The translations under genes were made by a program, and so were the position numbers. From positions 480,001 to 544,000 of the forward strand of contig CAWBKB010000005.1 in NCBI GenBank assembly GCA_963789265.1: a stretch of DNA of 64,000 bases. The letters run 5' to 3'. Below are positions 41,834 through 60,830 of the stretch, one piece after another. Below the pieces are notes generated by a model. It had not been told where the DNA came from. It saw nothing but the letters and a program-made list of their open reading frames with translations, and ran no database searches. The stretch's first letter is position 1. Every line of letters starts with the position of its first letter. This DNA is from an uncultured delta proteobacterium. GTDB taxonomy: Bacteria; Desulfobacterota; Desulfomonilia; Desulfomonilales; Desulfomonilaceae.

Positions 41834-43036
41834 TCAAGCTTTAGCGTTCCTTCCAGCAGCAAACAGTATCGGAAGGGAAATCAGTTGAGCCACTACGGAA
41901 AACTCTACGAGAGCAGGGAGCGAGATATCGTACAGGACGCCCATCAGAGCACTTCCACCAAACCAGAACAGGCCGAATGCCATATTGAATATGCCAAAGG
42001 CAAATCCCAATCGGTCGGTTGGGACCAAATCCGCAATAGCGGCCCTCATGACCGATGACTGCGCGCCCATTCCTACTCCCCATAAGGCCATGCCGACGAG
42101 TGCAGAATAATACCCGCCCAGAAAGACAAATGGGGCAAAAAAAGATGAAAAAAAGACCGCGGCAACCAACGAGGGAAGGCCGATACGATCGAAAATACTA
42201 CCGAAAAAAAGAGAAGCCAGGACATGAACACCCATCGCCACGGCATAAAATATCGGAATCGAACCGTCCGAGACTATGGCCATTTTCTTAAAGTGAAAGG
42301 CAATGAGGGAAAAGTCGGCATACCCGGCTGCCACAAACCCGATAGCAATTACGTAGATCCAAAACTTTCGAGAAAGGGCCTTTCCTTCCAACTCTACCGA
42401 GGTGGATCCAATGTCTTCTGGGGTCGGGTACAAACGTGCTGCCACAACCAGCAGGCTCAAAGCTATGAGGGCGGGAACTAACAGTACACCGAAGCTGGTT
42501 TGATAGGTACCCTTGAAATGTAGGACAGCCGCTACTACCAATGGGCCGATTACAGCTCCAGTCTGGTCCAGAGCCTGGTGAAGACCGAAACCCCATCCTC
42601 GGCCGATCTTTTGTGATGCGAGAGATAACATCACATCGCGCGTAGGGGTCCTGATCCCTTTGCCAATGCGTTCCGTCACGATTAGAGCTGCTGCAGTCGG
42701 CCAATGCCCGGCCAATGCCAGAAGAGGCACCGCCAACAAGTTCATGGCGTACCCGAACAGCACTATGGTCCAGTATCTCTTTGTTTTGTCGGTTAAATAA
42801 CCTGATGCGAGGCGCAGGCCATACCCTAGCAACTCCCCGAATCCCGCTACCACTCCCACTACTGTTGCGCTTGCACCTAGCATCTCCAGGAAAGGACCGG
42901 TGATGCTCCTGGCGCCTTCGTATGTGAAATCGGAAAAGAGGCTTATTATCCCGAGCAAGACTACGAACTTAATCGCGGTGGACTTGGAAATGTCGGATAA
43001 TACGGCTGGTGCGCGTGATGAAGTTTCGATGGCCAT
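41834..43036 (-). CDS. MFS transporter
   Basis: About 12 hydrophobic segments; SGYLTDKTKRY, ERIGKGIRTP, GFGLHQALDQTGA, GSIFDRIG. Confidence 0.9.
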   Translation of the reverse strand: MAIETSSRAPAVLSDISKSTAIKFVVLLGIISLFSDFTYEGARSITGPFLEMLGASATVVGVVAGFGELLGYGLRLASGYLTDKTKRYWTIVLFGYAMNLLAVPLLALAGHWPTAAALIVTERIGKGIRTPTRDVMLSLASQKIGRGWGFGLHQALDQTGAVIGPLVVAAVLHFKGTYQTSFGVLLVPALIALSLLVVAARLYPTPEDIGSTSVELEGKALSRKFWIYVIAIGFVAAGYADFSLIAFHFKKMAIVSDGSIPIFYAVAMGVHVLASLFFGSIFDRIGLPSLVAAVFFSSFFAPFVFLGGYYSALVGMALWGVGMGAQSSVMRAAIADLVPTDRLGFAFGIFNMAFGLFWFGGSALMGVLYDISLPALVEFSVVAQLISLPILFAAGRNAKA

Positions 43037-43138
43037 CTGGTCTCCATACCTCTGGTATTGCCAAGGGTTCGTATTACAAATCTAGCACAGCGGTAAGAGA
43101 TTCAATAAGATTTAAGACGGCCAGTTGGGCGTACAGAA

Positions 43139-45286
43139 TCAAACCAGCGTCTGAATCGCTAGGATCAACAATAGACTCATCAGAACGTATCCCGCGTATG
43201 CGTTTACACGTGCTGAATGCATGCGCACCAGGACTGTTGCCAACCATCGGGCCAATCGCAGAACAGGATTGACGGCCAATCTGTCCATTACATACGTTTC
43301 CTCGCGTCCATTTCTTATCGCGGTTCGGAAATGCCCGGCAATGCTCTCCTTTGCATTTTCAACCAGCGACGGGCGGAAGATGGAGTCGAAGATCACGCGT
43401 ACAGGATTGGAAAATCCGGTGGCAGTGTAGGTCATCTCAGGTAGCAGCCGACGAATTCCGCCATCCCAGACGGCTTGGCGTTTAACCGACCGCCCTCTGA
43501 AGAGCAGCCGGAACACTAAAACACTTGCCCCCAGGAGGAACGCTAATACGACCAGGGTGTAAGATGTAGACATCGCAAAGACGACCGGGTTGCTCTTCGA
43601 ACCCCGATGCAAAATCACCAGCCCTCGGCCCGGCAAGATTTCTCGGCCCACCTGCGCGCCCAAGTCATGAAATTCAGATACAAAAGCTTTGTTAAAACTG
43701 GGATTCCTATGAGCTGCGGAGAGAAAAAATGGCGGTACTAATTCATCGGCTACACTTTGATGTACCACAGGAGTGACGACGCGATCTATGACAGGAATTA
43801 TGAAGGTGGGTAAAATTCCAAACAGAAGGCATGCTGTGGCCAAGAAACCCATGGGAATCGACGTACAGCGCTTGGTTTCAGTCGCGGATTCCGCTTCTCT
43901 CGACCTGGCCATCCCCAAAAAACTCATGCCAAATGCTTTGACAAAGCAGGTGACCGCCAATGCAGCGGTAAGCGCCAATGTGGCACCGCACAAAGCGAAT
44001 GCGATCTTGACCCCTGCGGAGGAAAGCACAGAACTCTGAAGAAGCGTTTGCAGCGTCAGCCACTCAGTCACAAATCCGTTGAAAGGAGGAAGAGCTGCTA
44101 TCGAAAGCGCCCCAATCAGAAAGAAGACTGCCGTCCGCGGCATTCTCTTGATCAGCCCTCCCAGCCGATTCATGTCCCTGGTCCCGGCGTTTACATCCAC
44201 GGCGCCGGCACCGATAAACAAGAGCGCCTTGTACAGAGAGTGATTGAGCATGTGATAAAGCCCGACGATGAAAGCGATCCCGGCCAGCGCGGAATGCCCA
44301 TAGGAAATGAAGATGAACCCTGCACCGAGGCAGGCCGTGATTATGCCCATGTTTTCAATGGAACTGTGCGCCAGCATCTTCTTCATGTCGTTTTCGATAG
44401 TGGCGTAAAGGATGCCAATCAGTGCGGATAGGCTTCCGACAACCAGGACTATAAGCCCTTGCCCGACATGGCTAACGGGAAGCAGATCCATGTTCACGCG
44501 CACAATTCCATAGATACCCAGATTGAGAATGATGCCCGACAAGATCGCAGACACATTCGCAGGAGCAGCAGGGTGGGCTCTGGGCAGCCATGTGGAGGAG
44601 GGAATAAGGCCCGCTTTTACGCCAAAGCCGAAGAACGAAAGGAGAAAGATTGCCCATCTGGCGAATTCTCCGAGCCCGCTTGATGCGCTCTTCAGCGATG
44701 CAAAATCGAAGCTCCCCGACGCCCCCGTCAGCAGGAGAAGCCCGAGCGCCGCTGCAACTGTCCCGCCCTCGCTCATGGCCAACATCAAGAGGCCTGAACG
44801 GGTGACTTCCTCGCGTTCATGCTCATAGTTCACGAGCAGATACGAGAGAATGGTCATCACTTCCCAGGCGATCAAGAATGAGACAACGTCTCCGGCAACC
44901 AAGGTCAGGACGATGGATGCAAAAAGCAAGTGATAGAAAACGCCGAACGTTTTTAGACTATATCGGCCCCGATACTTTTCCATGTATTCGGCCGAGAAAA
45001 TCGAAATCGGTAAGTATACGAGCGCAGCAATGAAAATGAACAAGGACGAAATGCGATCCATGTTGAGATCGATTGTCCCGAAATATGGCAGATTCCAGAG
45101 ACCGGCATGAAAAGAGTATCCGAATAAAAGCACTCCGCCGCTGGCTGTTAAGGCTATGACTGAGGCTATGGACCCCACCGCTGCAAGCACCGGCAGGTTC
45201 ATTCGGTCCGGAAGTATAGCGGCGAGAATGGCCCCGATTCCGCATGTGGCCAAAAAGAGAAGAAAAAGGTGGCACGTATCAATCAT
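43139..45286 (-). CDS. HyfB-like antiporter-type membrane subunit (Ehr complex)
   Basis: WEVMT, KAGLIP..WLPRAHPAAP, LAHSSIEN, NHSLYK, LPPFNGFVTEW; ATGA overlap with the upstream gene. Confidence 0.9.
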   Translation of the reverse strand: MIDTCHLFLLFLATCGIGAILAAILPDRMNLPVLAAVGSIASVIALTASGGVLLFGYSFHAGLWNLPYFGTIDLNMDRISSLFIFIAALVYLPISIFSAEYMEKYRGRYSLKTFGVFYHLLFASIVLTLVAGDVVSFLIAWEVMTILSYLLVNYEHEREEVTRSGLLMLAMSEGGTVAAALGLLLLTGASGSFDFASLKSASSGLGEFARWAIFLLSFFGFGVKAGLIPSSTWLPRAHPAAPANVSAILSGIILNLGIYGIVRVNMDLLPVSHVGQGLIVLVVGSLSALIGILYATIENDMKKMLAHSSIENMGIITACLGAGFIFISYGHSALAGIAFIVGLYHMLNHSLYKALLFIGAGAVDVNAGTRDMNRLGGLIKRMPRTAVFFLIGALSIAALPPFNGFVTEWLTLQTLLQSSVLSSAGVKIAFALCGATLALTAALAVTCFVKAFGMSFLGMARSREAESATETKRCTSIPMGFLATACLLFGILPTFIIPVIDRVVTPVVHQSVADELVPPFFLSAAHRNPSFNKAFVSEFHDLGAQVGREILPGRGLVILHRGSKSNPVVFAMSTSYTLVVLAFLLGASVLVFRLLFRGRSVKRQAVWDGGIRRLLPEMTYTATGFSNPVRVIFDSIFRPSLVENAKESIAGHFRTAIRNGREETYVMDRLAVNPVLRLARWLATVLVRMHSARVNAYAGYVLMSLLLILAIQTLV

Positions 45287-46053
45287 TCCACAATCCTCCG
45301 TTGGATCGATGCAACGGGCTCTGCCACAGCCCCGGCTCGGCGTCCTGCTGCCACGAGTAATCCGTGAATCAACGCGAGAGGCGGCGGCGGGCAGCCGGGA
45401 ATCTCGACATCCACCGGAATCTCTTCGGCCACTCCAGCGCCGCAGGTGAAGCTCGGTCCAAAGACTCCTCCGGAGAGCGCACATGTGCCTACCGCAATTA
45501 CCTTTTTGGGCGTGGGCACAGCATTGTACGCTCTTTGCAACGGGAGCCGCATGTTATCCGTCACCGGACCGGCAACCAGCAATACGTCCGCTTGCCTGGG
45601 GGTCGGAGTCATGAAGAAGCCCAGCCTGTGGACGTTGTAGTAGGGCTTGCCGAGCTGTTCAATCTCGCTCAAGCATGCCCGGCAAGCTCCCGCGTCGAGC
45701 ACACGTACGTGCATAGAACGAGCAAAGGGCTTGCCCAGCCTACGTGACGAATCGGTCTCATCGGCGAGAGAAACTGCCCATTCATAACCCCACTCGCGAT
45801 CGAGAGGCTCAGACAGCCCACGCGAACACCGAAAACACTGAATGCAATGCCGGTAATCCACGGAGATTCGCTCCTCCGTAAGCCGGATAGCTTTCGTGGG
45901 ACATACGGGGACGACCGAAGACTGCGTTCCTGCTCCCCCGGTCAACATGCCGCAAGGCCGCCCGGGAGAAACGCCGGCAGCGGTCTCGACAGAGTCCGGA
46001 TATAACGTCGTCTTGGTCCCCGTGCGCAGTCCCATTAAAACCCATTTGGACAT
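45283..46053 (-). CDS. HyfI/NuoB-like small subunit with N-terminal ferredoxin-like segment
   Basis: CPTKAI..CIQCFRC; DAGACRAC, PRQADVLLVAG, GTCALSGG, PGCPP. Confidence 0.88.
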   Translation of the reverse strand: MSKWVLMGLRTGTKTTLYPDSVETAAGVSPGRPCGMLTGGAGTQSSVVPVCPTKAIRLTEERISVDYRHCIQCFRCSRGLSEPLDREWGYEWAVSLADETDSSRRLGKPFARSMHVRVLDAGACRACLSEIEQLGKPYYNVHRLGFFMTPTPRQADVLLVAGPVTDNMRLPLQRAYNAVPTPKKVIAVGTCALSGGVFGPSFTCGAGVAEEIPVDVEIPGCPPPPLALIHGLLVAAGRRAGAVAEPVASIQRRIVE

Positions 46054-46067: not shown

Positions 46068-47675
46068 CTAACGGTCACATTCTGCGTTCGAAAGTCCGAA
46101 TGTGGCCATAATGATGGGGAAGTCCTGAAAGGCGAAATTTTCGGCCGCCCAATGGAATCCATGCCAATTCGTGAACGACGGCGTTGTGACTCGATATCGC
46201 CCAATTCTTCCGTCGTCTCGGATACTCAACCAATGGAAGGCTGCTCCCAGCGGGGCTTCCACCCATGCCAGGCATTCACCGGCAACAATCTCAAAATCCG
46301 AGGACATAACATCCCCCTGAGGAAGCGAAGAGGCTATTTGTCGCACGATACGCGCCGATTCTTCCGCCTCACTGAATAGGACGCGGAGACGAGCATAGCC
46401 GTCCCCCTCGGATTCGACCGGTGTCCTGAATTCCAGCCCGGCATTGTAAAACCCGTAAGGCAATACCTTGCGCATATCGCGTGAAACTCCGGATCCTCTG
46501 GCAATAGGCCCCACAAGCCCGTATGAAACCGCGTTTTGAAGTGAAACCGTACCCACTTCCTCGAGGCGGTCCAAAAAGCTGCTGGAAAAACGTAACTTTT
46601 CCTGTAAGGCCTTTAATTTGTCTGCGACACGTTCGACCGACTGGCTCAAGTTTCGGCACTGATCTCCGCTCAGATCCAGCGACATCCCGCCCGGAATGCT
46701 GGTGCCGAACAAATAGCGGTGCCCCGCAATCACGCATGAAAGCCGAAGTAGCTCTTCTTCCAGAATGCCGGCCTGACTTGTGGCGACGGCCAGAGCTGTA
46801 GAACCGCAGATGCCTGTTATAGCGCCTACGTGGTGGCGCAAACGCTCCAATTCCGCCAAAAGCACACGTAAGGCTTGGCCGCGGGCAGGTGGTTGAACGC
46901 CGCAGATTTGTTCCACTGCCTGACAAAAAGCAAGCGCGTGGGCAAACGCCGAAGTCCCTGAAAAACGCTCGGCCATCAAAAGGACATGCTCAATAGGCTG
47001 CCCCTCTGCCAGTTTTTCGAGTCCACGATACTTGTAGAAAAAGCGTGGGGTGGTACGAACGACATCCTCGCCAACCGTTTCCAGGAAGAACTGAGCAGAC
47101 TCCGCGTAGTCGGAATAAACCGGCCCTATGGGCATCATAAAGGCTCCGGGGGCTTGAAGGATCTGCAAAGGCCGCCATTCCGGGTCCACTTCTTTATGGG
47201 GATATGGCACGGATGGGTCGAAATCCGACCTCATAGGGTTGACTCCTTCCGGCCATTCCTCGTGCAACACAAAATCCCCGAGCCTTGGATGGCCCTCGAA
47301 GGTGAGTCCAAAAAGGTCTTCCACTTCTCGCTCATGCCAATCCGCCGCATGAACGTGCGCGCTGATACTGGGAATAACCGTGTTTGTTTTGGGCTGGTGA
47401 AGCAGTACATGAATCTGACCACACTCGGGATCTCCATAGAAAACATAGCGGAGAAACCAGTGAGAAGAATTCTCTTGGACAATCAATGTGGCAAAGGTGT
47501 ACTTGGCATGAGAAACAAGCAGTCCGCACACTTCCTGCAACTCACCTGGGCCGCATTCAATCAGGACCGAGAGCTTCTGTGTGTCGACGTTTACCTTCAC
47601 TTCTCCTGTCCAGCGCGTCTCCAGGACCTTGAGTAATTTCTCCGGCTTCAGTGCGCAGTTAGATGAACATGGCAT
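46068..47675 (-). CDS. HyfG/HycE-like large subunit (NuoC+D fold) lacking NiFe cysteines (Ehr type)
   Basis: WHEREVEDLFGL.FEGHP, YKYRGLEK, ELERLRHH, GDGYAR, VEAPLG. The CxxC positions read ERFSGTS and GLSNAECDR. Confidence 0.9.
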   Translation of the reverse strand: MPCSSNCALKPEKLLKVLETRWTGEVKVNVDTQKLSVLIECGPGELQEVCGLLVSHAKYTFATLIVQENSSHWFLRYVFYGDPECGQIHVLLHQPKTNTVIPSISAHVHAADWHEREVEDLFGLTFEGHPRLGDFVLHEEWPEGVNPMRSDFDPSVPYPHKEVDPEWRPLQILQAPGAFMMPIGPVYSDYAESAQFFLETVGEDVVRTTPRFFYKYRGLEKLAEGQPIEHVLLMAERFSGTSAFAHALAFCQAVEQICGVQPPARGQALRVLLAELERLRHHVGAITGICGSTALAVATSQAGILEEELLRLSCVIAGHRYLFGTSIPGGMSLDLSGDQCRNLSQSVERVADKLKALQEKLRFSSSFLDRLEEVGTVSLQNAVSYGLVGPIARGSGVSRDMRKVLPYGFYNAGLEFRTPVESEGDGYARLRVLFSEAEESARIVRQIASSLPQGDVMSSDFEIVAGECLAWVEAPLGAAFHWLSIRDDGRIGRYRVTTPSFTNWHGFHWAAENFAFQDFPIIMATFGLSNAECDR

Positions 47676-47682: not shown

Positions 47683-49131
47683 TCACCTCCCCAGTGCATT
47701 TGCCGCCTGGCGTAAGAGCTCAAGAAGCGGCCCGGGAATATAAAGTCCGAACAGACAAACCGGGATTGCCGCCAGCGACAGACATGCAGCGTAACTCTTT
47801 GGCAACGCGGGCCATCCGGGGCGAGGCATAGGCTTTCCGAATACCATGCGGGAGACGTGAAACATGATTCCACAGAAGGCTATAACTACAAAGAGAGCCA
47901 GCATGCCCGTGATTAAGTATTGGCCGGTGGAAACTCCCGCTTTTAAGATGGTGAGTTCGCTTAAAAAGACAGCAAAGGGAGGAGCCCCTGAAATCGCCAG
48001 TGCCCCCAGGAGAAGTGACACGCCAACCAGGGGCGATTCCCGAATAAGGCCTTGTACCGAGTTAATGTCGCGCGCGCCGGCGATTCTGAGCGCGGCACCG
48101 GCGGCAAAGAAACAGAAAGATTTTGCAACTGTATGGGTAACCATCTGATAGATGGCGCCAAAATCGGCGGCAGCTCCGCCCAGGCCAACGGCCACCAAAA
48201 TAATGCCCATGTGTTTTATGGTAGAAAACGCGAAAAGGCGTTTATATTCTTTTACTTGAATCAACAGGAAGGCCGCGAAACCGGTTGACACCAAACCGAA
48301 AATCAAAATCCATTTCTCGGGGGTGCCACCTGAAATCGCTTGTACGGCCGGTGTTACTCTCAATATGGCGTAAAGAGCAGTGGAAGTCTCCACACCGGAA
48401 AGAAGCGCGCAAACCGGCGACGGCGCCTGGCTGTGAGCATCAGGAAGCCAGGTGTGGAGAGGAACCAAACCGGCCTTGGTTCCGAATCCGATAAGGATGA
48501 ACAGGAATCCTGTCTGCAGCATTGCCGGAGGCATTTTCGGCGCGGCTGCAACCAGGCCCGACCAAGTCAAAGGCCCCCCTCCCGAGAGGGTCATGCCCCA
48601 ATATAGAATCAAGATCCCGAAAAGTGCGAGTGCGGCCCCCATGCACGTGAGCACAGCATATTTCCACGCGGCTTCAACAGCCTCGGGGGTGTTCGGAAAG
48701 CTGACAAGAAATACCGACAAAAGCGTGGTTAGCTCGACCGCGATCCAAACCAGCGTGACATGCGACAAGACTGGAACAGCCAGCATCGAAACAAGGAAAA
48801 GGTTGTAGCGCCAATAATAGCGTCGCGCCCTTTCAGCTCCGTTGGATCCAACTGTCTTTCCGATGTATCCCCACGAAAAAACGGCGGCTGTGAGTCCGAC
48901 AAAGGAAACCAGCAACAGGAGCAACCCACCCAAGGCATCGCATGCGATCCATCCTTTTATTGCCACAACATTGTGGCCGGCAGAGGTTTTCAGAGCTGCA
49001 TGCAAAGAGGCGATGAAAACCACCACAGTCCCCAGGATGGTAGTCAAAGGTGCAAGGCTACGAACTTTTGTCGGAATCCAAGAAAGGGCTGCAGCAACAA
49101 CAGGTACCAGAAGGATGTATATGAGTTCCAT
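47683..49131 (-). CDS. HyfF-like membrane subunit
   Basis: WIAVELTT, EAAWKY, GTKAGLVPLHTWLPDAHSQAP, KRLFAFS. Confidence 0.9.
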   Translation of the reverse strand: MELIYILLVPVVAAALSWIPTKVRSLAPLTTILGTVVVFIASLHAALKTSAGHNVVAIKGWIACDALGGLLLLLVSFVGLTAAVFSWGYIGKTVGSNGAERARRYYWRYNLFLVSMLAVPVLSHVTLVWIAVELTTLLSVFLVSFPNTPEAVEAAWKYAVLTCMGAALALFGILILYWGMTLSGGGPLTWSGLVAAAPKMPPAMLQTGFLFILIGFGTKAGLVPLHTWLPDAHSQAPSPVCALLSGVETSTALYAILRVTPAVQAISGGTPEKWILIFGLVSTGFAAFLLIQVKEYKRLFAFSTIKHMGIILVAVGLGGAAADFGAIYQMVTHTVAKSFCFFAAGAALRIAGARDINSVQGLIRESPLVGVSLLLGALAISGAPPFAVFLSELTILKAGVSTGQYLITGMLALFVVIAFCGIMFHVSRMVFGKPMPRPGWPALPKSYAACLSLAAIPVCLFGLYIPGPLLELLRQAANALGR

Positions 49132-49137: not shown

Positions 49138-49824
49138 CTATTCCTCTATCAGGGCGGCCATCTCGCCTACCGCGGTGGTTCCGATGTGTTCGTGGACCTT
49201 CATAATAAGGATTCCCATTACCCTTGCGATGATGAGTAACTCAAAAGCGGCAGCCAGTTCGGCTATAAGCGGAAGATTCGGGGCAATCGAAATACCGGCG
49301 AAAAATGCCCCGTTCTCCATGGACAGAAGGGCGATTACCTGTGGAACCGCCTCACGCCTCACAGTCATCGCGTAGGCTCCCAGGAGTAGACCTGCCAGAC
49401 CGATGGGCAGGTTAACCGAAGCAGCTCCTCCAGCCGGGGCCGCTTTAAGGAGGGGCACTGAAACGAAATAGGCGAAAACAACTAGGACGAGCGAAATTAA
49501 TAGGGATGTGGGGATATTCAAAGCCTGGGAGATCTCTCGGCGAGAGCGAAGTTCATTTCCCAGCCTTCCTAACAAGAGCCAGGGAAGCAATGCGACCTTG
49601 ACGGCAAGAGTTATTCCGCCGACTACAAAAAGTTCGTTCGAGCCGTTTTGGTACCCCAGGAGAAATGCAGATGCCGCGAGAAGCGCAGCCTGAATCACGA
49701 ATGTCCTAAGACACGCGAGAACCTGCCGCGTGGCAATGAGACCAAAGGCCGTCAAAAGGAAGAGAGCCGCGGCAAGCGCATTTAACTCGGTCAATGGAAG
49801 AATTGTGGTGTTTGTGCCAGGCAT
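49138..49824 (-). CDS. HyfE-like membrane subunit
   Basis: Hydrophobic; KVALLP, QVIALLSMENG, IAEL; AGGAGG RBS. Confidence 0.85.
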   Translation of the reverse strand: MPGTNTTILPLTELNALAAALFLLTAFGLIATRQVLACLRTFVIQAALLAASAFLLGYQNGSNELFVVGGITLAVKVALLPWLLLGRLGNELRSRREISQALNIPTSLLISLVLVVFAYFVSVPLLKAAPAGGAASVNLPIGLAGLLLGAYAMTVRREAVPQVIALLSMENGAFFAGISIAPNLPLIAELAAAFELLIIARVMGILIMKVHEHIGTTAVGEMAALIEE

Positions 49825-49835: not shown

Positions 49836-50787
49836 CTAAAATTGCAGCAGTCGCGTGATTACGGCAGCGACGGATGTTACAAAAGCGGCGCCGAGAAATT
49901 CCGGAATTCTGAAAAGTCTCAGTTTGGCAAGCGAGGATTCGATGGCGACCAAAACCAGGACAAATGCCAGGATTTTTGTCAAGATTAGCGGAACTGCCAG
50001 CAACAACTCTCCGACAGATTGTCCGTGAGCAAGACCCCAGGGACTGACCAGCACGTTGAGGAATATGCATAGAAGTACAAAGAACTTCATGCATCCCCCC
50101 CATTTCATCAAAGCGGCGCCTCGGCCAGAATACTCCAGTCCCTTGGACTCATCCACCATGGCTAGCTCGAAATGGCCGGAAGGGCTGTCTACAGGGATGC
50201 TTCCGGTTTCAGCGATGATCAGCATCAGGAACGACAGAACCACCAGCACATGCGCGGGTTCAAAGAAATTCGCCATAGGCGTGACCCAGTGTTTTTGAAC
50301 GATGTATGGAATGGTGGAACCTGCAACGAATGAGACGGTGAAGAAAACAATCATGAACACCGGTTCGGCTAAAAATCCCACCATCCTAGTACCGGCTGGC
50401 CCCCATTGGACCGTACGGGTTTGCAGTATCAATGGCCGCAAGCGTCGCAAAAAAGCCACCGAGAGCTAGAATAAAGCCACCTCCCAGCATGTCTGCCATG
50501 AAAGCGAAGAAGAGCGGGTAGCTCGTGAGGACAGGTATGAGCAGCGTCACGAAGATCGGCGTGACAAATACTATGTACGGGGTGACGCGAAAAATCCAAG
50601 AAGAGTGCTCGGATACGACTTCGTCTTTGTGAAAGAGCTTCCATATATCAAAGTACGGCTGAAAAACGCTGGGGCCTCGCTTGGACTGGATTCGCTCTTT
50701 AAGGCGACCAAGCACTCCCTTTACGAGAGGGGCAAAAGCCATTACCACGAGCACCTGCATTAAATTAAACAGGATTTTCTGGGCCAT
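49836..50787 (-). CDS. HyfC/HycD (NuoH-like) membrane subunit, apparent frameshift ~50392
   Basis: QSKRGPSVFQPYFDIWKLFHK...GPMGASR, then AEP, ETGSIPVD, ELAMVDE..EYSG, ESSLAKLRLFR. Confidence 0.88.
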
Positions 50788-52254: not shown

Positions 52255-52427
52255 TTCTCTTATCCTTCCTTTCTCCTCAGATAAATTGCAACCGCTTCCC
52301 CGCCACCGCCGTGTCGCCAAGCCCAACGAAACTTATCGTGGGTAATGTACAGCGCGAAGAACATCTCGGTTATTTTCTCAGTTCGAAGATTCGGCAGGCC
52401 CAGCGGGGAATCACTCCAGCTTCTGCC

Positions 52428-53936
52428 CTAATTTCGCTCATAGTCCCTTCTGAATGTCCTCTTGTAAAGGTCTTCGCCATAGGCGGTCTGCAACGGCTCT
52501 CCTTCGATTAGCCGAAAAGTTCGTGTCCCGTCGGTTCGCCTTTCTGCTCGTAAGAAAAGGGCGTTGTTCACTTTCTTGTCAAAAAAATCGCGGGCGAATT
52601 CATACAAATGCGTGACAAAGAAAACCTTGATGTTTTTCTCCAATAATGCGCTGACTATCTGCCTTGCGATCTCCGAGCCTTCTCTTGTATTGGTTGCTGC
52701 AAACGATTCATTGAAAAGCACCAGGGAATTTGACGTTATCATGTCTGCAATATCACTCATCCTGCTCAGTTCTTCGTCAAATTTCCCGCTTTTCATGGTA
52801 GGATCTTCTTCCCTCTTGTAGTGCGTGAAAAGGCCACTGCAAATATTGGCACAGAAAGATTCAGCCGGCACAAACATGCCGCATTGCATCATCAATTGGG
52901 ACAAACCTATGCTTCGCAAAAAAGTCGATTTGCCGCCCTGGTTGGCCCCTGTAATGATCACGAGGTCTTTGTTCTCTGCGTTCACATCGTTACCAACGAT
53001 ATCTCGCTTCATGGTAAGGGCCAAACAGACATCGTATAAGCCCTTAAAGGAATGTCTGCGTTCGCCGGCAGCCACCGGTACGGGAAAAGATATTGGCTCC
53101 CCCATTTGGGCAAGCTGTTCAGATAGATTTAAACAGCCGATGTAAAAGGCCAATTCGACTCGTAACATTTCAAAAAAACTATCAATATGATCGGCAGATT
53201 GAGCAAGTGCGTTGGCAACCAGTCTGATCCCCCTGTTTCTTAATTCCGCCACTGCGTTGGCACCGGCTTCATCCCGATCGGCGACATAATAGGTGTAAAC
53301 GGGAGCGCTTTCGCCAAAGATCCGCTCCAACCAACTTTGTCTTTTATCCAGTGGCTTGCGAAGCACGTAATTGGTGCCTTCGTTGCCTTTTCCTAATTCG
53401 GCACTGATCAAAACCCCCTGGCGAAATTTCAATTCCTTTAAATAATTTTCGACAATGGCGAAATATTCATCATCAAGTTCTCTTTTGATCATCGCGAAAA
53501 ACGTGGTAAAGCCTTCTGACTCAAATTTTTCTGCATGCTCGTCGGCAATATTCTTTAGCTTTTTGAGCAAGCCCACAAACATTTGCAGCATTTCTATCGC
53601 GCTATGCAGGAGACTCGAGGGAAGTTTGCTGAAAAAGCCCATCCAACTTCTTCTCTTGTTTTCAATTGATTCAATCGGGAGTTGATAGATGTCCCTGACA
53701 ATAGCCGAATTTTTCAGGCAATCCTTGAGTATGTTTTGGCGATAAATCAATGTATCCGGATCGGCTGAACCGCACAATACAGCGCTCTTTGCCACTTCAA
53801 ACAAGAATTTGTCACCAAGTGCCACGGCATGGAACATCGTGTTCAATTCCAGGTCCTGTGTTAGCGTTTGTTCATTCGACGGCAATTCCTGCTTCAGGTC
53901 GAAATCTCGATCTTTATACATAAGGAAAGCCTTCAT
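52428..53936 (-). CDS. MutS domain V-only ATPase (second of pair)
   Basis: ITGANQGGKSTFLRS, MQCGMFVPA, LFNESFAAT, FVTH; ATGA overlap with partner. Confidence 0.88.
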   Translation of the reverse strand: MKAFLMYKDRDFDLKQELPSNEQTLTQDLELNTMFHAVALGDKFLFEVAKSAVLCGSADPDTLIYRQNILKDCLKNSAIVRDIYQLPIESIENKRRSWMGFFSKLPSSLLHSAIEMLQMFVGLLKKLKNIADEHAEKFESEGFTTFFAMIKRELDDEYFAIVENYLKELKFRQGVLISAELGKGNEGTNYVLRKPLDKRQSWLERIFGESAPVYTYYVADRDEAGANAVAELRNRGIRLVANALAQSADHIDSFFEMLRVELAFYIGCLNLSEQLAQMGEPISFPVPVAAGERRHSFKGLYDVCLALTMKRDIVGNDVNAENKDLVIITGANQGGKSTFLRSIGLSQLMMQCGMFVPAESFCANICSGLFTHYKREEDPTMKSGKFDEELSRMSDIADMITSNSLVLFNESFAATNTREGSEIARQIVSALLEKNIKVFFVTHLYEFARDFFDKKVNNALFLRAERRTDGTRTFRLIEGEPLQTAYGEDLYKRTFRRDYERN

Positions 53937-55468
53937 GATTTTATGCGTTCCTTTAAACAACCATAAGTGATGCGATGCTTCTCGGCGATGGATAGCGCGT
54001 ATGAAAGCCCGTCAGCAGGCCTTCTCACAATTTTATATGTTCGCAATGCAGGATTTTCCGGGACAACCGTGCTGACCATGCTGACGGTTTGTTCGCCCAA
54101 AGAAGCCAATTCGTCGATGAATGTCACCCAAACGCACAAGGAGCCTAATTCCATTATTCTTTCCATTACCTTCTTGCTCAAGAAAACTGCGTCTTGTAAT
54201 GTTGCGGAAGTGAATATTTCATTTAGTATCAGAACGCTGTTCGGCGTGGCCCGGTTTAGAATATCGTGAACCCTGACCAGGTCTTCTTGCAGTTTGCCGC
54301 GGAGATTCCTGATATCTTCGCGCCTCTCAAAATGCGTAAAGATCCTGTCAAACAGAAAGAGTCGTGCTTTCTTGCCCGGCACTGGACAGCCCAAGACGGC
54401 TAGATAATGTAGCTGCCCGAAAGTGCGGCCAAAGGTTGTCTTACCTCCCTGGTTCGGACCGGATACCACAAATATGCGTTCCTTACCTTTCAGGTAAAAA
54501 TCATTACAGACGACGGACGAATTCTCGGTAAGGAGCTTATGCGCCAGGGCTAAATCAAATCCTTCATGATCATAAACTTCCTTGTCCGTACCGGAAAGCT
54601 GCGGGTAACAGAATTTCAACCCGGTCAACCTGAGCTTTTCGATATACTTTAAGTAGGCAACATAAAATTGTATTTCCCGGTCAAAGACGGCTATAGTTTG
54701 GTCCAGATAACCGCGGTTATGTTCGCAATAATTATCGAGATTTAGAAACACTTCGGGATATAATTTGGCTACGAAGTCTAATATTGCCGCTTCAACATGA
54801 TTCATGCCCGACCACATTGGGGGCTTGGTCTTGTAATTTTTTACGTCACCCTGTTTAAATTTTTCGAATGTTTTTTCCACCTCGACGCTGTAATCAATCT
54901 CAGATTCATACTTGCGCACCTTGACAGAGTTATCCTTAACGAGCATGCAATATTTTACCGTTGATAATTCGGCTTTAAGCTTTTTCGTTTCCGCCAGTAG
55001 TGACCCAAAGCCACCGGAGTTGACATAGTTCGTCGCGTATTCGCGGAACATCAAAAGGCCTCGTGATTTCAAATTGGCAAGGTTCAGATCGCGTACCAGG
55101 CTAGTAACGGCCTCGCAATAAATTTCTACTGCCTCCAAAAACCATCCTTCTTTATGGTACTTGTAGTGAAGCTTATCTTCCAGGGAAAGGTATCGATGCA
55201 TTGTAGTCATTTTGAGCGCAAATGATTCTATATTTTCCAGCAGAATTTCGTTTTCAAGGTCCTGTGCTATTTCTTGGCGGTACTTGATGGCATCGATACC
55301 ATTTAACGAAGTGTAAAAAAGCGGTTTTAAATTGTATGTCTCCTTACCGGCCGTAATTGCATCCACAATCTGATCGAGATTCAAATCAACAAAGAAGGCA
55401 GGCGCCTCAAGGATTTCCTCTTTTGCGCCGTCTTCAGGTCTTTCAAATAGTATGCTGTGGAAAGTCAT
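53933..55468 (-). CDS. MutS domain V-only ATPase (first of pair)
   Basis: VSGPNQGGKTTF, GCPVPG, IFTHF, LNEIFTSAT, SYALSIA. Confidence 0.88.
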   Translation of the reverse strand: MTFHSILFERPEDGAKEEILEAPAFFVDLNLDQIVDAITAGKETYNLKPLFYTSLNGIDAIKYRQEIAQDLENEILLENIESFALKMTTMHRYLSLEDKLHYKYHKEGWFLEAVEIYCEAVTSLVRDLNLANLKSRGLLMFREYATNYVNSGGFGSLLAETKKLKAELSTVKYCMLVKDNSVKVRKYESEIDYSVEVEKTFEKFKQGDVKNYKTKPPMWSGMNHVEAAILDFVAKLYPEVFLNLDNYCEHNRGYLDQTIAVFDREIQFYVAYLKYIEKLRLTGLKFCYPQLSGTDKEVYDHEGFDLALAHKLLTENSSVVCNDFYLKGKERIFVVSGPNQGGKTTFGRTFGQLHYLAVLGCPVPGKKARLFLFDRIFTHFERREDIRNLRGKLQEDLVRVHDILNRATPNSVLILNEIFTSATLQDAVFLSKKVMERIMELGSLCVWVTFIDELASLGEQTVSMVSTVVPENPALRTYKIVRRPADGLSYALSIAEKHRITYGCLKERIKS

Positions 55469-55539
55469 AGCAAACACCCAGGGACACTTGCCATCCCGTT
55501 TGCCTTCGGCATTGAATTGTAGCTTGCTCCAATGAAACC

Positions 55540-55562
55540 AAAAAACCCACCTTGCGGTGGGA
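55540..55562 (-). terminator. Riboswitch-2 terminator
   Basis: Minus strand CCCACC-GCAA-GGTGGG-TTTTTT. Confidence 0.78.
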
Positions 55563-55763: not shown

Positions 55764-56180
55764 CTACCGGCGCCCAGTCGCCACTACCTCCGCAACTTCT
55801 CTGAGCTTCCCTATCAGCAAGGCCGTCCTAGGATCGAGGTAATCCGCCAAGCCGGGCGGAACCTCCCCGTATCTGCGAAGACGAGAGCCTTCAAGCTCCG
55901 AAAGCGAGACCCAAAGTACCGAGCACGAACTCAAGATCATTTTCTCTGCAATGTGAACCGAACCGTCCAGGTTCAACGTGTCCCGCATTTCTCTAAGGAT
56001 AGTTTGCATGTCCTCCACGAGTTCTGAAATTGTTCGTCCTTGTTCGGACGAAAGGCTGTTCCGAACCTCGTACAGGGTAGACCTGACCTTCTTGCCCGTT
56101 GCCCATTCATCGAACTGGCAGAGAGCCTTGTCCAAGAGGTACAGTGTTGTCGAGATTCCGCGAATATGGTTTTCACTCAT
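55764..56180 (-). CDS. Hypothetical helical protein (138 aa)
   Basis: Clean ORF co-oriented 44 nt after eno; LRRYGEV motif near the C-terminus. Confidence 0.7.
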   Translation of the reverse strand: MSENHIRGISTTLYLLDKALCQFDEWATGKKVRSTLYEVRNSLSSEQGRTISELVEDMQTILREMRDTLNLDGSVHIAEKMILSSCSVLWVSLSELEGSRLRRYGEVPPGLADYLDPRTALLIGKLREVAEVVATGRR

Positions 56181-56224: not shown

Positions 56225-57502
56225 TTATTTAGGCAGCGGCGACTCGAAAACAGCCGCCTTGCCTAGTTCCGCCTCAATCTCTAGGAGCCGGTTGTATTTT
56301 GCGATTCGCTCACTGCGACTCGTTGACCCGCTCTTAAGTTGTCCGCCACCCATTGCAACGGCAAAGTCAGCCAAAAAGGTATCTTCGGTTTCGCCGGAAC
56401 GATGGGAAATCACATATCCCCAGCCGGCCTTGTGACACAGTTGAATTGCTTCAATCGTTTCGGTAACTGTACCAATTTGATTCAGCTTGATCAGCGCTGC
56501 ATTGGTGGTCTTTTCCTTAATGCCGCGGGCAATGAACCGTGTATTGGTCACATAGATGTCGTCGCCCACGATCTGAACCTGCTCGCCGAGCACGGCCGTA
56601 TGCTCGCGAAATCCTTCCCAATCATTCTCTGCAAGACCGTCTTCAATTGAAACTATTGGATACTTTTCAACCCAGGATTTGTAGAGATCCGTCATTTCCG
56701 AGCTGCTCTTTTTGCCCTGACCTGATTTGCTCAGGTTATATAGGCCGTCCTCAAAGAAAGAACTGGCTGCCGGATCAAGCGCCAGGGCTATGTCCTTGCC
56801 CGGTTTAAAGCCTGCTGCCTCTATAGCCTCGAGAATTACCTGGCACGCCTCATCGTTGCTTTTGAGATTGGGTGCGAACCCGCCCTCGTCGCCGACGCTC
56901 GTTGTATATCCTTTGCCCTTGAGAATTTTCTTCAGGGCGTGGAAACTCTCGGCACTGTAACGCAGGGCTTCAGCGAATGTTGGAGCGCCAATCGGCGTTA
57001 CCATGAACTCCTGAAAATCCACGCTATTGTCCGCATGCTTTCCGCCATTCAGTATATTATTCTGGGGTACGGGGATTTTCACAGTCCCGGGACCTCCCAG
57101 GTAAGCATACAAAGGGAGGCCGGAGACCACGGCCGCCGCACGAGCCGCCGCCATAGAAACACCCAGAATGGCATTGGCCCCGAGCTTGCTTTTAGTGGGC
57201 GTCCCGTCCAGTTCGATCATTACTCGGTCAAGCTCTGCTTGCCGTGTCGACGGAAGGCCGACTACCGCCGGAGCGATTATCCGGTTCACATTATCTACGG
57301 CCTTGAGAACACCTTTGCCACCGTACCGCTTCTGATCTTTGTCGCGCAATTCAAGTGCCTCGTTCTCCCCCGTGGAAGCCCCTGAAGGGACAGAAGCCGA
57401 AGCCGTTACTCCGTTGCTCAACTCCACAAAAACACGGATCGTCGGGTTTCCACGAGAGTCGAGAACCTCCAGTGCCCTAACAGAAACGATCTTGTCATCC
57501 AT
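56225..57502 (-). CDS. eno: Enolase
   Basis: [39 protein letters not shown]. Confidence 0.97.
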
Positions 57503-57687: not shown

Positions 57688-58428
57688 TTAAGCGGTATTT
57701 GTTTCTCCCATGATCGACAGCAAAAGTCTCCACCCGCTGCACCAACCAACCGCGCTTATCAAAGCGGCTGAATCTTCCTCGGTTTGGCTGCCCTGGAACT
57801 CGAACTGGAACGACCGTGCATATTTTACGAGGTGGTCAAATATGTATGGCACCGAGGACCGGTGGACAGACATTTCACCAGCCAATCTCGAGGATTCGTC
57901 TTCAATCAGGTGCTGCCTGCATCTCAGAGTTGAGGCCGTGCCGGCGCATCTTCCGCAAATGGTGTCGCGCCAATAGGGTTCGGTTCTTTTGGCCAACCGG
58001 AGCAGTTCGCCCAGATCTCGCCCTTGTCGAACGATTTTCTCTTTTACGATTCCTTTGCTGTGAGGGCCGTATCCCTCCTCACACATTAAGCATGGGCCCT
58101 TATCCCCGAGCCGTCTTCTCAATCGCCCATGTTGTGCCGGTCCGTTCAACTGGAAAGCATTCAAAGCGGCTCTCATAAGATCCTCATATAGAAGAGCGGG
58201 GCCGTGCATGTACCCGCTACGAAAGGACGCTTCCACGATCATCCAACCCCACGCATGGCGCTCGCAGAAACCCCAGGCTTTGCGCATACGCTGCCGCGTC
58301 GAGGGGTTCATGATGCTTCCCTGAATAAACCACCAGAGAAAGTGAATTTCCCCGGGCGAGAGCCGGAAAGCATCCGGAGGCGACAACTGCAACGCAGTAC
58401 CTGTGGTACGAATGTGGGTGTGCTGCAT
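57688..58428 (-). CDS. Hypothetical protein with CxxH/CxxC motifs (start uncertain)
   Basis: GFCERHAW, CLMC, CGRC, CRQH; the ORF-track N-terminal extension runs across a REP element. Confidence 0.65.
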   Translation of the reverse strand: MQHTHIRTTGTALQLSPPDAFRLSPGEIHFLWWFIQGSIMNPSTRQRMRKAWGFCERHAWGWMIVEASFRSGYMHGPALLYEDLMRAALNAFQLNGPAQHGRLRRRLGDKGPCLMCEEGYGPHSKGIVKEKIVRQGRDLGELLRLAKRTEPYWRDTICGRCAGTASTLRCRQHLIEDESSRLAGEMSVHRSSVPYIFDHLVKYARSFQFEFQGSQTEEDSAALISAVGWCSGWRLLLSIMGETNTA

Positions 58429-58698: not shown

Positions 58699-60525
58699 TT
58701 ATTTCTGACTTTCTTCACAGATCCCGGTCAAGGCATGTGCAGCGGATTCCAACCGCGCCACTTCATCGAGGATTGCTTCGGCATGTTCCTTCCTCTTGGT
58801 ATACGCGGCCTGAATAGCTCCGTGCGTGGCTGCAATGGTTTCTTCAAAACGTTGATCCAGTGATAAGGCGAAGCCGCGAAACGCGTTGTTAAGGTTTTGC
58901 AAGGTCGCCCATCGAAGGTTTTCCACGTTCTGCCGAACCAGCGCGTCAATCTGTCTGCCCAGGCGCTTCTTGAGTCTGCTGATACGAAGAGACGCCGGCA
59001 GGAGTCTATCAAGGGCCTCTTCCGGAATCACAATTGGCAGAGTGGGTACCCGCTTCCTGAGCACCCAGTGAGGCCGCCGCTTCACCTCAAACGCTTCGGA
59101 GCTTTCCGGAGCATGATATGGGATGTTAAACAGCTCTGCCGCGGCTTTACGAATCGCTTGGATCAACTCGTCTGCTCGCTGCTGGTGCGGACGCAATGTT
59201 TCCGTCACATGCCGGCCAAATCCTTGAGTCACATCCTCGGCCGAACCTTGGAAGAATGAGGTTACCTCCTCTGCCAGAGCATCCATAACAGTCGCTTCCT
59301 TCACTTCCCCGTCTTTCATGGCTGAGAAAGATGCCTCCACTACGCTCTCAAGGTGATCTACGGACGTTTGCCGGAGCGCTTCGGCCTGCTGCTCCAGTGA
59401 TTCCAGCGTACGTTTTCTGTCACCGGTCAACAAATCTTGCGCGGCGACTCGCTGGCCTTCCGCATTTTTCAGCTCTCTTTCGAAGACTTGTAAGCGGCTT
59501 TCCAGGTCATCCAGGGGCATTTGCAGGGTACGGATCGCCAGCCGGAGTCTCATCACAACTTCTTCAAGAGCGTCGGTAACTTTTCGTCCCACGGCTTCAC
59601 GCAAAGCGTTCGCCTTTTCGGAAACGAGAAAACATATCAGATGGTCTTCGACCTCATTTAAGCCGCTCTGGGTCCATAAGTCGGCATCTCCGAAAAGCTT
59701 GGCGTCGAGACCGCGGCGTGAAGATACACAGAAAATCGGATGATCGTTTGTCACCTGAAGTTTTTCGGTGAGCACTTTCTTGAAAAAAGCTAAAGCGGTT
59801 TCTCTTTCATGCCCATTGAGGTAATCCACCTTGTTAAAGATGAAAAAGAGACGGGAAACTCTGGATCGGACCGCTTTCAGAAACTCGGCTTCCACTTCTG
59901 TGAGGGGCGGGTCCGCCGAGACGACAAATAGTGCCGCGTCGCACTGGGGAAGAAAACTGAGAGTAGCTTCCGTATTGTGCGTAAAAGTGGACCCAATCCC
60001 AGGGGTATCAATCAAAACGACGCCATGTTGGAGAATGGCAGCGGGGTGAAAGATCTCCACCTGAAGAACTCCAAGTCGGTTTTTCGGGTTGCCCTCTTCG
60101 GTGACAAAGCTTTGTAAGATTTCGGCAAGCTGTTCGGAGGTTTTTCCGGCAAATTCCTTCACGGGTCTTTCGTCCAGGTAGCAGACCCGGATTTTTCGCT
60201 CGGGACCATATTCCACAAAAGTTGGGATGGCCGTTAACGGCACAACGGAAGTCGGCAAAAGCGCCTCGCCAAGAAAGGCGTTTAGAAGTGTGCTCTTGCC
60301 ACGCTTGAATTGTCCCAATACTGCCAGGTGGAAGCGCCCTTCTTCCAGACACGTGCGGAGGGCGAGTAATCTCTCCCGGTCGCCGTAGAACTGACTTCCG
60401 AGAGATTCCACAATTCTTAACGCTTCGCCGAGGAGTAGCTGGAAATCGATTATAGCTCGGGAATCTTGCTCGTCCGGGCAAGTTAGCGTTTCTAAAGCGG
60501 AATTCTCGCCTATCTCGGATCTCAC
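58699..60525 (-). CDS. Bacterial dynamin-like GTPase
   Basis: G1 GQFKRGKS, G2 VVPLT, G3 DTPG, G4 NKVD, long helical C-terminal stalk; GTG start with AGGAGG. Confidence 0.9.
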   Translation of the reverse strand: MRSEIGENSALETLTCPDEQDSRAIIDFQLLLGEALRIVESLGSQFYGDRERLLALRTCLEEGRFHLAVLGQFKRGKSTLLNAFLGEALLPTSVVPLTAIPTFVEYGPERKIRVCYLDERPVKEFAGKTSEQLAEILQSFVTEEGNPKNRLGVLQVEIFHPAAILQHGVVLIDTPGIGSTFTHNTEATLSFLPQCDAALFVVSADPPLTEVEAEFLKAVRSRVSRLFFIFNKVDYLNGHERETALAFFKKVLTEKLQVTNDHPIFCVSSRRGLDAKLFGDADLWTQSGLNEVEDHLICFLVSEKANALREAVGRKVTDALEEVVMRLRLAIRTLQMPLDDLESRLQVFERELKNAEGQRVAAQDLLTGDRKRTLESLEQQAEALRQTSVDHLESVVEASFSAMKDGEVKEATVMDALAEEVTSFFQGSAEDVTQGFGRHVTETLRPHQQRADELIQAIRKAAAELFNIPYHAPESSEAFEVKRRPHWVLRKRVPTLPIVIPEEALDRLLPASLRISRLKKRLGRQIDALVRQNVENLRWATLQNLNNAFRGFALSLDQRFEETIAATHGAIQAAYTKRKEHAEAILDEVARLESAAHALTGICEESQK

Positions 60526-60586
60526 GATAAGCCCTCCTGTTTGTACCTTTCAATCAGCGGAGTTCCACGGATAGACGGTTGAAAAT

Positions 60587-60609
60587 AAAAAACCCACCTT
60601 TTGGTGGGT
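60587..60609 (-). terminator. Riboswitch-3 terminator
   Basis: Minus strand ACCCACC-AAAA-GGTGGGT-TTTTT. Confidence 0.78.
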
Positions 60610-60646
60610 ATCCGCAGGACCGGTCTCCCACCGCGAAGTCTCCGAC

Positions 60647-60693
60647 GGCAGGAGTCATCAGCCCGTGACGAGCATTTGGGGGACTCCATCCCC
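60647..60693 (-). ncRNA. Fluoride (crcB) riboswitch 3, upstream of dynamin-like gene
   Basis: Minus strand GGGGATGGAGTCCCCCAAATGCTCGTCACGGGCTGATGACTCCTGCC; TTGACT-17 nt-TACAAA upstream. Confidence 0.9.
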
Positions 60694-60830
60694 TTTTAGC
60701 CATTTCCTATTTTGTATAGCCACGGTTGTGAAAAGTCAAGGCGCAAACTTTGGGCGAATGCAAGCATTCACGTACGTGGGGCAGGCTTTCCAACCTGCCT
60801 CACACGATTGCTTACCGGCGAATAATCGGT

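Follow-up and report, generated by a model that had tools for sequence, protein, structure and literature searches.

Three fluoride riboswitches head a probable regulon of accessory genes in a Desulfomonilaceae genome in which neither Fluc nor CLC-F was found

The 64,000-nucleotide stretch analysed here (the window) is taken from contig CAWBKB010000005.1 (positions 480,001 to 544,000, forward strand) of assembly GCA_963789265.1, an uncultured, sediment-type delta proteobacterium of the family Desulfomonilaceae. On its minus strand, three consecutive gene units are each headed by a fluoride riboswitch. Unit 3 encodes a dynamin-like GTPase, a Cys-rich partner, a second enolase and a small conserved protein; unit 2 encodes two MutS-domain-V ATPases and a HAD-like protein; unit 1 encodes an Ehr-type membrane module and, as its last gene, a major facilitator superfamily (MFS) transporter. 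We consider it likely that this island is a fluoride-inducible regulon of accessory functions, organized as three independent transcription-attenuation units. Neither of the exporters Fluc/CrcB and CLC-F was found in the assembly, and the MFS transporter is put forward, tentatively, as the route by which fluoride leaves the cell.

When the whole window was scanned with cmscan against Rfam 15, exactly three matches above the gathering score were obtained, all of them to RF01734 (gathering cut-off 34 bits) and all on the minus strand. Aptamer 3 (60642-60702; 41.9 bits, E 3.1e-08) heads the dynamin unit, aptamer 2 (55594-55654; 56.1 bits, E 7.2e-13) the MutS-MutS-HAD unit, and aptamer 1 (51170-51242; 48.1 bits, E 3.1e-10), which has a longer P3, the Ehr-MFS unit. 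Each of them covers the full model (positions 1-64). An earlier note on this DNA had proposed three such aptamers, each with a terminator, and had named a covariance search with RF01734 as the check; all three aptamers score well above the Rfam threshold, a terminator follows each, and the positions first proposed are the cores of the matches. No RF01734 match beyond the three island sites was found elsewhere in the assembly (6.06 Mb, 9 contigs, 95.6% complete, 6% contamination) when 150 of 624 first-look candidates were scored, and a strict core aptamer pattern applied to the genome returned the same three sites only.

The intrinsic terminators of riboswitch 3 (60583..60609, minus strand; ACCCACC-AAAA-GGTGGGT with a T-run) and riboswitch 2 (55540..55561, minus strand; CCCACC-GCAA-GGTGGG with a T-run) lie 33 nt past their aptamers, with the stem-plus-T-run sites at 60609-60592 and 55561-55546. 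Riboswitch 1 is followed by two successive terminator-like hairpins with T-runs (51060..51138, minus strand; sequence reading and fold), and its terminator reads CCCACCCC...GGGUGGG UUUUU at about 51137-51109. After each aptamer, the terminator hairpin and T-run are accompanied by alternative hairpins that use the ACUCCU strand. In the predicted folds, the aptamer 3' strand ACUCCUGCCG pairs with a G-rich strand further downstream. This G-rich strand reads GCGGCGGG in unit 2 and GGUGGG in unit 3, and has complementarity to the terminator 5' arm CCCACC as well. In unit 3, GGUGGG lies upstream of the terminator, whose 5' arm it can engage to form an antiterminator. Promoter-like sites were observed ahead of aptamer 2 (55746-55718) and aptamer 1 (TTGACA-18-AATTAT with TG, 51279-51250).

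Read from the sequence, this arrangement is consistent with three-hairpin ON-switch logic of the usual type, presumably under the control of the ligand. The aptamer would bind fluoride and hold its 3' strand in the pseudoknot, so that the G-rich strand is freed; the freed strand would then pair with the terminator 5' arm CCCACC, and RNA polymerase would read through. The canonical fluoride riboswitch units are reportedly those of crcB/Fluc and eriC-F/CLC-F, and the island shares with them the aptamer class and the terminator-based ON logic.

The canonical exporters were searched for in the whole assembly. A six-frame search with PF02537 (CrcB) gave 0 matches, and the same search was positive in 11 of 14 named control genomes; tblastn of four CrcB proteins from other loci against the assembly gave no match. 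Neither CrcB nor CLC was found within the window. PF00654 identified three CLC genes on other contigs (four match places, with one gene in two frames). All three read GSGGS(V/A)GREGP, with GHGVPE, GSGVPE or GHGTDA upstream, and none of them lies behind an aptamer. One of these genes is split (G000:C1:236647-237634) by a further apparent frameshift. According to the available parts of Brammer 2014 (PMC4113899), CLC-F keeps the gating Glu and is strictly marked by an adjacent Thr/Val and by Asn/Met replacing the helix-D Ser. The three genes carry Pro instead of Thr/Val beside the gating Glu and were rejected as CLC-F. The absence of a recognisable Fluc or CLC-F, first remarked for the window, is thus borne out and extends to the whole assembly.

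A total of 41 relatives from the same genus, family and class were compared (genomes and loci are cited below by our G and L numbers). A fluoride aptamer is present in 26 of the 41; CrcB is present in 1, many of the genomes being 99-100% complete. Neither CrcB nor CLC was found in G010 (100% complete) and G016 (99%), and CLC was also lacking in G015, G023 and G007. The CLCs of G006, G009, G013 and G014 read GREGP, and neither a CLC-F mark nor a CLC behind an aptamer was found, be it in the genome itself or among the tested relatives. With neither exporter in this genome and in nearly all sampled relatives, fluoride would have to leave by another route.

Fluc and CLC-F are the only bacterial exporter families named in the accessible text of a review (PMC11139923), where more than 85% of the surveyed genomes are said to have one or the other and those without tend to be reduced symbionts. 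Unlike the genomes so described in that text (PMC11139923), the present one is a 6-Mb genome of free-living type in which three aptamers and neither of the exporters were found. MFS, dynamin and MutS are words that the same accessible text does not contain.

The MFS gene (41834..43036, minus strand) encodes 400 aa (PF07690, 82.1 bits against a cut-off of 33.4). When a profile of 15 members (A1) was searched in GTDB representative genomes, at least 593 species loci were obtained. From these, 80 loci of many phyla (54-88% identity) were kept; four riboswitch-positive ones come from relatives already counted above. Rfam reported, at gathering score, 38 RF01734 matches in 30 of the 75 MFS loci scanned (1,021,387 bases). 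The genomes of the 41 relatives (about 190 Mb, from rounded sizes) hold 34 matches, which gives an enrichment of about 200-fold at MFS loci. With our own covariance model, built from 40 Rfam-reported aptamers, a fluoride aptamer was found within 8 kb in 33 of the 80 loci. The strict pattern recovered 27 of the 28 sites known from the relatives but only 21 of 38 Rfam-reported sites outside the class, and was replaced by the Rfam scans, this covariance model and a pseudoknot-aware scan (33/38 found, about 7 false matches in 6 Mb).

The distance from an aptamer to the MFS start downstream of it is under 150 nt in L082, the cultured Neomoorella stamsii (38.9 bits), L127 (35.2), L089 (29.5), L088 (25.7) and L113 (22.0), the lower scores being due to a longer linker. 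Long-linker variants directly upstream of MFS genes were observed at L082:7863-7937, L127:282-356, L089:7859-7937, L088:7839-7917, L113:6249-6326, L087:7845-7907 and L135:7875-7937. They share a covarying ATGAGGC...GCCTCT pseudoknot, were found by our own model or the pseudoknot-aware scan, none being reported by Rfam at gathering score, and may represent a longer-linker aptamer subclass. For 30 MFS genes from a phylum-wide set of 301 evenly sampled genomes, a search within ±1.5 kb gave aptamers at only 3, plus one weak match, because this flank is too short for a gene that is usually the last of a long operon.

In 33 of the 80 loci, the flanks of the MFS gene contain one or more genes of the set crcB, dynamin-like, MutS-like, enolase, Na_H exchanger, PPase, hyp329 and hyp138, and ChrB_N genes stand beside the MFS gene in 8. 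Operons (Pfam; rs, riboswitch; dyn, dynamin-like; NaH, Na_H exchanger; eno, enolase; x, other) read rs-dyn-x-x-NaH-USP-PHO4-MFS-ChrB_N-cNMP in L065, rs-NaH-x-eno-PPase-MFS in L136 (Methanobacterium) and rs-crcB-MFS in L137 (Gemmatimonadaceae) and also L140 (unpublished genome); L108 (Niastella vici) has MFS-eno-PPase-Metallophos-dyn. Among the relatives, 19 aptamer loci from 15 genomes were compared, and in 11 of these genomes an MFS gene (62-95% identical) follows the aptamer in the same orientation. Its neighbours vary (Na_H_Exchanger-USP-MFS; dyn-...-MFS; hyp138-MutS-MutS-...-MFS; and Ehr-MFS in G012). No homologue of the relatives' Na+/H+ exchanger was found in the present genome, where the Ehr module occupies the Na_H_Exchanger-USP place ahead of the MFS gene.

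The distribution of CrcB was compared with that of the MFS family. In 50 MFS-bearing genomes of many phyla, CrcB was present in 20 and not found in 30; of these 30, 15 are without CLC, and no readable CLC of the other 15 carries the Thr/Val mark (one fragment was unreadable). In the phylum sample, CrcB was found in 12 of 57 MFS-bearing genomes versus 113 of 244 others (odds ratio 0.31, Fisher p 5e-4).

The AlphaFold2 model of the MFS protein (mean pLDDT 81.7) has 12 long helices, and the top 500 Foldseek matches were all MFS structures. The OxlT oxalate:formate exchanger (PDB 8hpk), an anion transporter, shares the 12-helix MFS fold (TM 0.76, Foldseek E 1e-10); its identity is only 15%, and VMAT, MCT and NorA are nearly as close, so the substrate is not named by the fold match. 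A PDB sequence search with the MFS profile gave no match at E 0.01 or better, and an ESM Atlas look-up of an MFS homologue returned 'MFS transporter' clusters only. A literature search joining fluoride riboswitch and major facilitator returned nothing relevant.

The MFS transporter is our favoured candidate because it is gated by an aptamer as an exporter would be, is narrowly conserved, is depleted where CrcB is present, has an anion-transporter-like fold and sometimes stands by ChrB_N. It would be the most likely exit route, by direct transport of F- or HF, and we hold this to be possible but doubtful. The earlier note had suspected a non-canonical exporter in the island; this idea gains comparative support for the MFS protein and stays hypothetical; crcB shares the MFS operon in some genomes, and the MFS gene is lacking in some exporter-less relatives.

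Several observations weigh against the MFS protein as exit route and against the picture of an exporter-less genome on which it depends. No aptamer was found in 47 of the 80 MFS loci within the flanks examined. crcB lies in the MFS operon in L137, L116 and L140, and the MFS gene lies beside crcB in G166, G240, G247, G261, G350 and G377 (in G261 and G377 only weak crcB-like fragments). Five CLCs in the CrcB-less MFS genomes have GPEDP, GPADP or GAEAP at this site and were assigned to no class, and the Fisher tests count related genomes as independent. In the relatives G009, G010, G013 and G015 (96-100% complete), an aptamer is present but CrcB and MFS are both lacking, so the lineage can do without the latter. 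A crcB gene of 120 aa could be missing from an assembly that is 95.6% complete and 6% contaminated, and the exclusion of CLC-F depends on one sequence marker from one paper. Two further points concern the island itself: the HyfC-like gene of unit 1 is split by a frameshift that could stem from misassembly or be genuine, and the units, shuffled from relative to relative, need not work as one functional whole.

It is conceivable that a canonical exporter was simply missed, either because crcB falls within the 4-5% of the genome that was not assembled or because one of the CLCs exports fluoride despite its canonical motif. The completeness and contamination values speak for this, as do at least two frameshift-split genes in or near the island plus one CLC elsewhere, which mark the assembly as imperfect. 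The near absence of CrcB from relatives, many of them 99-100% complete, and the lack of any CLC-F mark or aptamer-led CLC in the genome or the relatives tested argue the other way, and we regard this explanation as very improbable.

A stronger competitor dispenses with a dedicated exporter. Here Ehr (or the relatives' Na+/H+ exchanger) would lower the inside-alkaline pH gradient and thereby let HF diffuse out of the cell. Metabolism would be sustained by the extra enolase and the phosphoryl-transfer proteins, and the MFS protein would move another solute, such as phosphate, organic anions or metal complexes. This is a serious possibility, to which we give somewhat less than an even chance. It accounts for relatives without CrcB, MFS and (in G010 and G015) CLC, where the aptamer is followed only by Na_H_Exchanger, either alone or together with USP. 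The accessible text of PMC11139923 ranks Na+/H+ antiporters as the second most common riboswitch-linked genes and describes intracellular acidification as a fluoride adaptation. PHO4 phosphate-transporter genes adjoin the MFS gene in L065 and L069, and the joint occurrence of MFS and crcB in one operon also fits. Against it, an aptamer of its own directly gates the MFS gene in at least five loci, as for exporters; CrcB is depleted in MFS-bearing genomes; and an MFS identity of 54-66% across phyla argues for one narrow, shared substrate. Returning to the MFS protein as exit route, control of the pH gradient with outward diffusion of HF would be the alternative exit in our scheme.

The island as a whole was also found elsewhere. 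The same-genus genome G001 carries the same three-aptamer island in the same order, and the modules (dynamin-like GTPase, MutS pair, enolase, HAD, Ehr and MFS) recur behind fluoride aptamers in many phyla, so that the neighbourhood survey proposed in the earlier note shows the gene set to co-occur in other genomes. The dynamin-like gene comes first after the aptamer in 10 of the relatives' 19 loci, and in 5 of 9 loci in the class's other family. The G001 island has two extra genes that are absent from this window: an FlK-like gene (fluoroacetyl-CoA thioesterase family, PF22636) directly past aptamer 2 (L038:13790-14215), and, between MutS-B and HAD, one more DUF6062-like paralogue (L038:9894-10637). 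A literature search on fluoride riboswitches and Desulfomonile found nothing.

The three units could be independent mobile fluoride modules that came to lie side by side by chance and act each alone, for which we see about an even chance. In relatives they occur singly or reordered (dyn alone, dyn-MFS-HAD, hyp138-MutS-MutS-MFS, Ehr-MFS), and the low G+C of unit 2 together with a MutS-like protein 74% identical to that of a Firmicute suggests separate acquisition. Repeated clustering within a few kb in unrelated phyla (L108, L082, L136, L065) is harder to explain in this way, and the same ligand for all would make one regulon even if not one machine. The multi-component system that had been proposed for the island is therefore upheld by the recurrence of its modules, and its integration into a single system is not, the modules being shuffled and often single in relatives.

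The gene order proposed for all three units was borne out by Pfam and NCBIfam. In unit 3, the dynamin-like GTPase (58699..60525, minus strand; 608 aa) matches PF00350 Dynamin_N with 100 bits over profile positions 1-167 of 168 and has the P-loop GQFKRGKS. Its subfamily was surveyed with a profile of 11 members (A5) in the 301 phylum genomes, aptamers being called within ±1.5 kb with our own covariance model. The subfamily is present in 53 of the 301 genomes, and 28 of the 30 best dynamin-like loci have an aptamer upstream on the same strand (39.6-62.7 bits; the exceptions are L168 and L174). CrcB was found in 13 of 53 carriers versus 112 of 248 others (odds ratio 0.39, p 0.006, related genomes being treated as independent). 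In one family of the phylum (G223, G283, G368), the dynamin-like gene closely follows a crcB gene in the same orientation. In L192, L180 and L184, also from phylum genomes, back-to-back aptamers were observed on opposite strands, one for the dynamin-like gene and one for a divergent unit; in G240, which holds L192, crcB is on the divergent side. A literature search found nothing joining fluoride, riboswitch and dynamin, and the gene lists of Baker 2012 and McIlwain 2021 may already name dynamin or MFS genes.

The Cys-rich partner (57688..58428, minus strand; about 246 aa) gave no direct match in Pfam, including PF19538, at E 5 or better. When its family profile was compared by hhalign with four proteins that had been tblastn-matched to the PF19538 member of L071, a probability of 95.9% was obtained (E 6e-9, 188 columns), and these four DUF6062-related proteins adjoin dynamin-like genes in other phyla. 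By this profile-profile comparison, the partner is probably a distant DUF6062 protein. An open reading frame (ORF) of 329 aa (to 58677) was rejected as its true length: the first ~83 residues overlie a dispersed repeat, by which the listed ORF is lengthened by about 83 codons, and the ORFs of relatives have 242-260 aa. The repeat copy (58452-58641, core about 55-135 nt) lies between the dynamin-like gene and the partner, and a 281-nt query gave 116 blastn matches of about 73-94% identity over the contigs of the genome. A complex prediction for the dynamin-like GTPase and the DUF6062-like protein scored 0.00, below the mark, and was counted neither way.

The second enolase copy (56225..57502, minus strand; 425 aa) matches TIGR01060 with 643 bits against a cut-off of 300. 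Its paralogue, 60% identical, is on contig C3, on which no aptamer was found. The small protein hyp138 (55764..56180, minus strand; 138 aa) is conserved and lies outside any Pfam family, the Pfam search giving no match; homologues were found in the fluoride islands of relatives and of genomes titled as Chloroflexi/Chloroflexota and Anaerolineae metagenome-assembled genomes (MAGs) and as a Spirochaetia MAG. Just upstream of the island, a DEAD/DSHCT (HelY-like) helicase gene is split on the minus strand (60831-61472 and 61315-62922), a second apparent frameshift.

Unit 2 begins with the MutS-domain-V ATPases A (53933..55477, minus strand; 514 aa; PF00488 only, 67.5 bits) and B (52428..53960, minus strand; 510 aa; PF00488, 86.6 bits), which are 27% identical to each other. 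ATPase A is 74% identical to its homologue in the N. stamsii locus L082. Pfam and NCBIfam found in either ATPase PF00488 domain V alone, with no mismatch-binding domain, no other MutS1 domains and no MutS2 Smr. A mismatch-repair identity as MutS1 or MutS2 was rejected, the equivalog models reaching only 59-88 bits against cut-offs of 400-642. ATPase B also scored against the KamC reactivase ATPase model NF052383, with 83.9 bits and thus below the cut-off of 300. The HAD-like protein (51508..52326, minus strand; start probably near 52254) matches TIGR01488 HAD-IB with 24.2 bits, below the cut-off of 45, and Pfam HAD and HAD_2 at E 0.06-0.17 only; homologues 68-88% identical occur in the fluoride operons of relatives. 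The G+C content of unit 2 is 44.8-46.5% against about 52% for the genome. Judging from composition and from the Firmicute-like ATPase, the MutS-MutS-HAD unit was probably acquired separately.

Unit 1 starts with a leader of about 360 nt between aptamer 1 and the first Ehr gene, in which a long near-perfect inverted repeat (GGTGCCACTGACCTGAGCACC...GGTGCTCAGGTCAGTGCA, 50880-50960) was observed between the riboswitch 1 terminators and that gene. The module comprises, all on the minus strand, a NuoH/HyfC-like membrane subunit in two frames (49836..50808; PF00146 on both pieces), a HyfE-like membrane subunit (49138..49824; NF008556, 50.8 bits, below cut-off; start placed from a 227-aa homologue in G012), a HyfF/Mrp-antiporter-like subunit of 482 aa (47683..49131; PF00361, 170 bits), a fused NuoC/NuoD (HycE-like) large subunit (46068..47675; PF00329, PF00346, PF00374), a NuoB/HycG-like small subunit whose N-terminus is extended by a 4Fe-4S ferredoxin-like stretch (45283..46053; PF01058, 87.6 bits) and a HyfB/Mrp-antiporter-like subunit (43139..45286; NF005086, 566.6 bits, below the cut-off of 667; PF00361). 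The HyfC-like gene is split by an extra G near 50393 (CAGCCGGTAC versus CAGCC-GTAC in the intact gene of G001).

The large subunit of a group 4 [NiFe] hydrogenase has four Cys ligands, in an N-terminal RxCGxCxxxH and a C-terminal DPCxxCxxH/R motif. At these positions the large subunit of unit 1 reads RFSGTSAFAH and SNAECDR, so that 3 of 4 Cys are lost, and the same loss is seen in G001 and G012. The NuoB-like subunit, read in the same way, keeps the cluster cysteines. No formate dehydrogenase domain was found by Pfam among the ORFs of 41834-50808. Identity as a group 4 NiFe hydrogenase or formate hydrogenlyase is ruled out by the loss of the Cys ligands. Ehr complexes are energy-converting hydrogenase-related complexes, and from its subunit motifs we read the module as an Ehr-type complex without a NiFe site, complex-I/Mrp-like and presumably ion-translocating. 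The 'Ehr' label of the earlier note is confirmed in that the large subunit lacks the NiFe cysteines and PF00146, PF00361 (twice), PF01058, PF00329 and PF00346 are present. Like Ehr complexes and E. coli Hyf (FHL-2), the module has HyfB, HyfC, HyfE and HyfF-like membrane subunits with NuoC/D-like and NuoB-like subunits. Unlike Hyf/FHL-2, it lacks the Cys motifs and a formate dehydrogenase, has a ferredoxin-like NuoB extension, is headed by a riboswitch and ends in an MFS gene. 'Formate hydrogen lyase', enolase, HAD and mutS are already listed as fluoride-riboswitch-associated in the accessible parts of PMC11139923 and of Weinberg 2010 (PMC2864571); the first of these labels is, by the motifs read here, chemically wrong, here at least.

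Past the MFS gene, a cNMP-binding protein (40940..41398, minus strand; PF00027) is 61% identical to the product of the gene after MFS-ChrB_N in L065 and may belong to unit 1 as a further member. Further along the minus strand, a 4Fe-4S ferredoxin (39856-40290) and a NUDIX hydrolase (39239-39802) are encoded.

In the regulon that we propose, the dynamin-like GTPase with its DUF6062-like partner and the small conserved protein would keep the membrane or envelope intact. Inhibition by fluoride is established for enolase in general, and the second enolase would out-titrate it. The MutS-domain-V pair and the HAD-like protein probably serve phosphoryl-transfer chemistry that is poisoned by metal-fluoride complexes, and the Ehr module would handle protons or sodium, like the exchanger whose place it takes. 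A comparable case is Enterobacter cloacae FRM, for which the available parts of Liu 2017 (PMC5533749) report a fluoride-induced extra enolase with transcripts up 176-fold. As described there, the operon ppaC-uspA-eno-gpmA-crcB-orf5249 resembles the present island in being riboswitch-driven and multigene, in joining an extra enolase to stress and phosphoryl-transfer genes, and in having probably been acquired horizontally. It differs, so far as those parts describe it, in containing CrcB; the island has three aptamers, no CrcB in the assembly, and a dynamin-like GTPase, a MutS-like pair, Ehr and MFS.

More broadly, the MFS family, whose members share 54-66% identity between bacterial phyla and with Methanobacteria, may be a third prokaryotic family of fluoride exporters or an obligate export helper, serving lineages such as Desulfomonilaceae that have riboswitches and no Fluc or CLC-F, with the dynamin-like GTPase and its DUF6062 partner as a second, membrane-protecting arm; we offer this as a speculative proposal. 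The riboswitch-linked 'formate hydrogen lyase' annotation is corrected for this locus, where the product cannot be a NiFe hydrogenase. New tolerance genes would be of practical value, as fluoride tolerance limits the engineered degradation and synthesis of organofluorines. For the organism and its relatives, a large genome of free-living type, and most of its family, with up to three fluoride riboswitches and neither exporter, raise the question whether fluoride has another exit route. The MFS family, linked to an aptamer in a third of the loci surveyed, the Na+/H+ exchangers and the Ehr module are named candidates for such a route, and the MFS transporter and the dynamin-like GTPase become candidate parts of the fluoride response.

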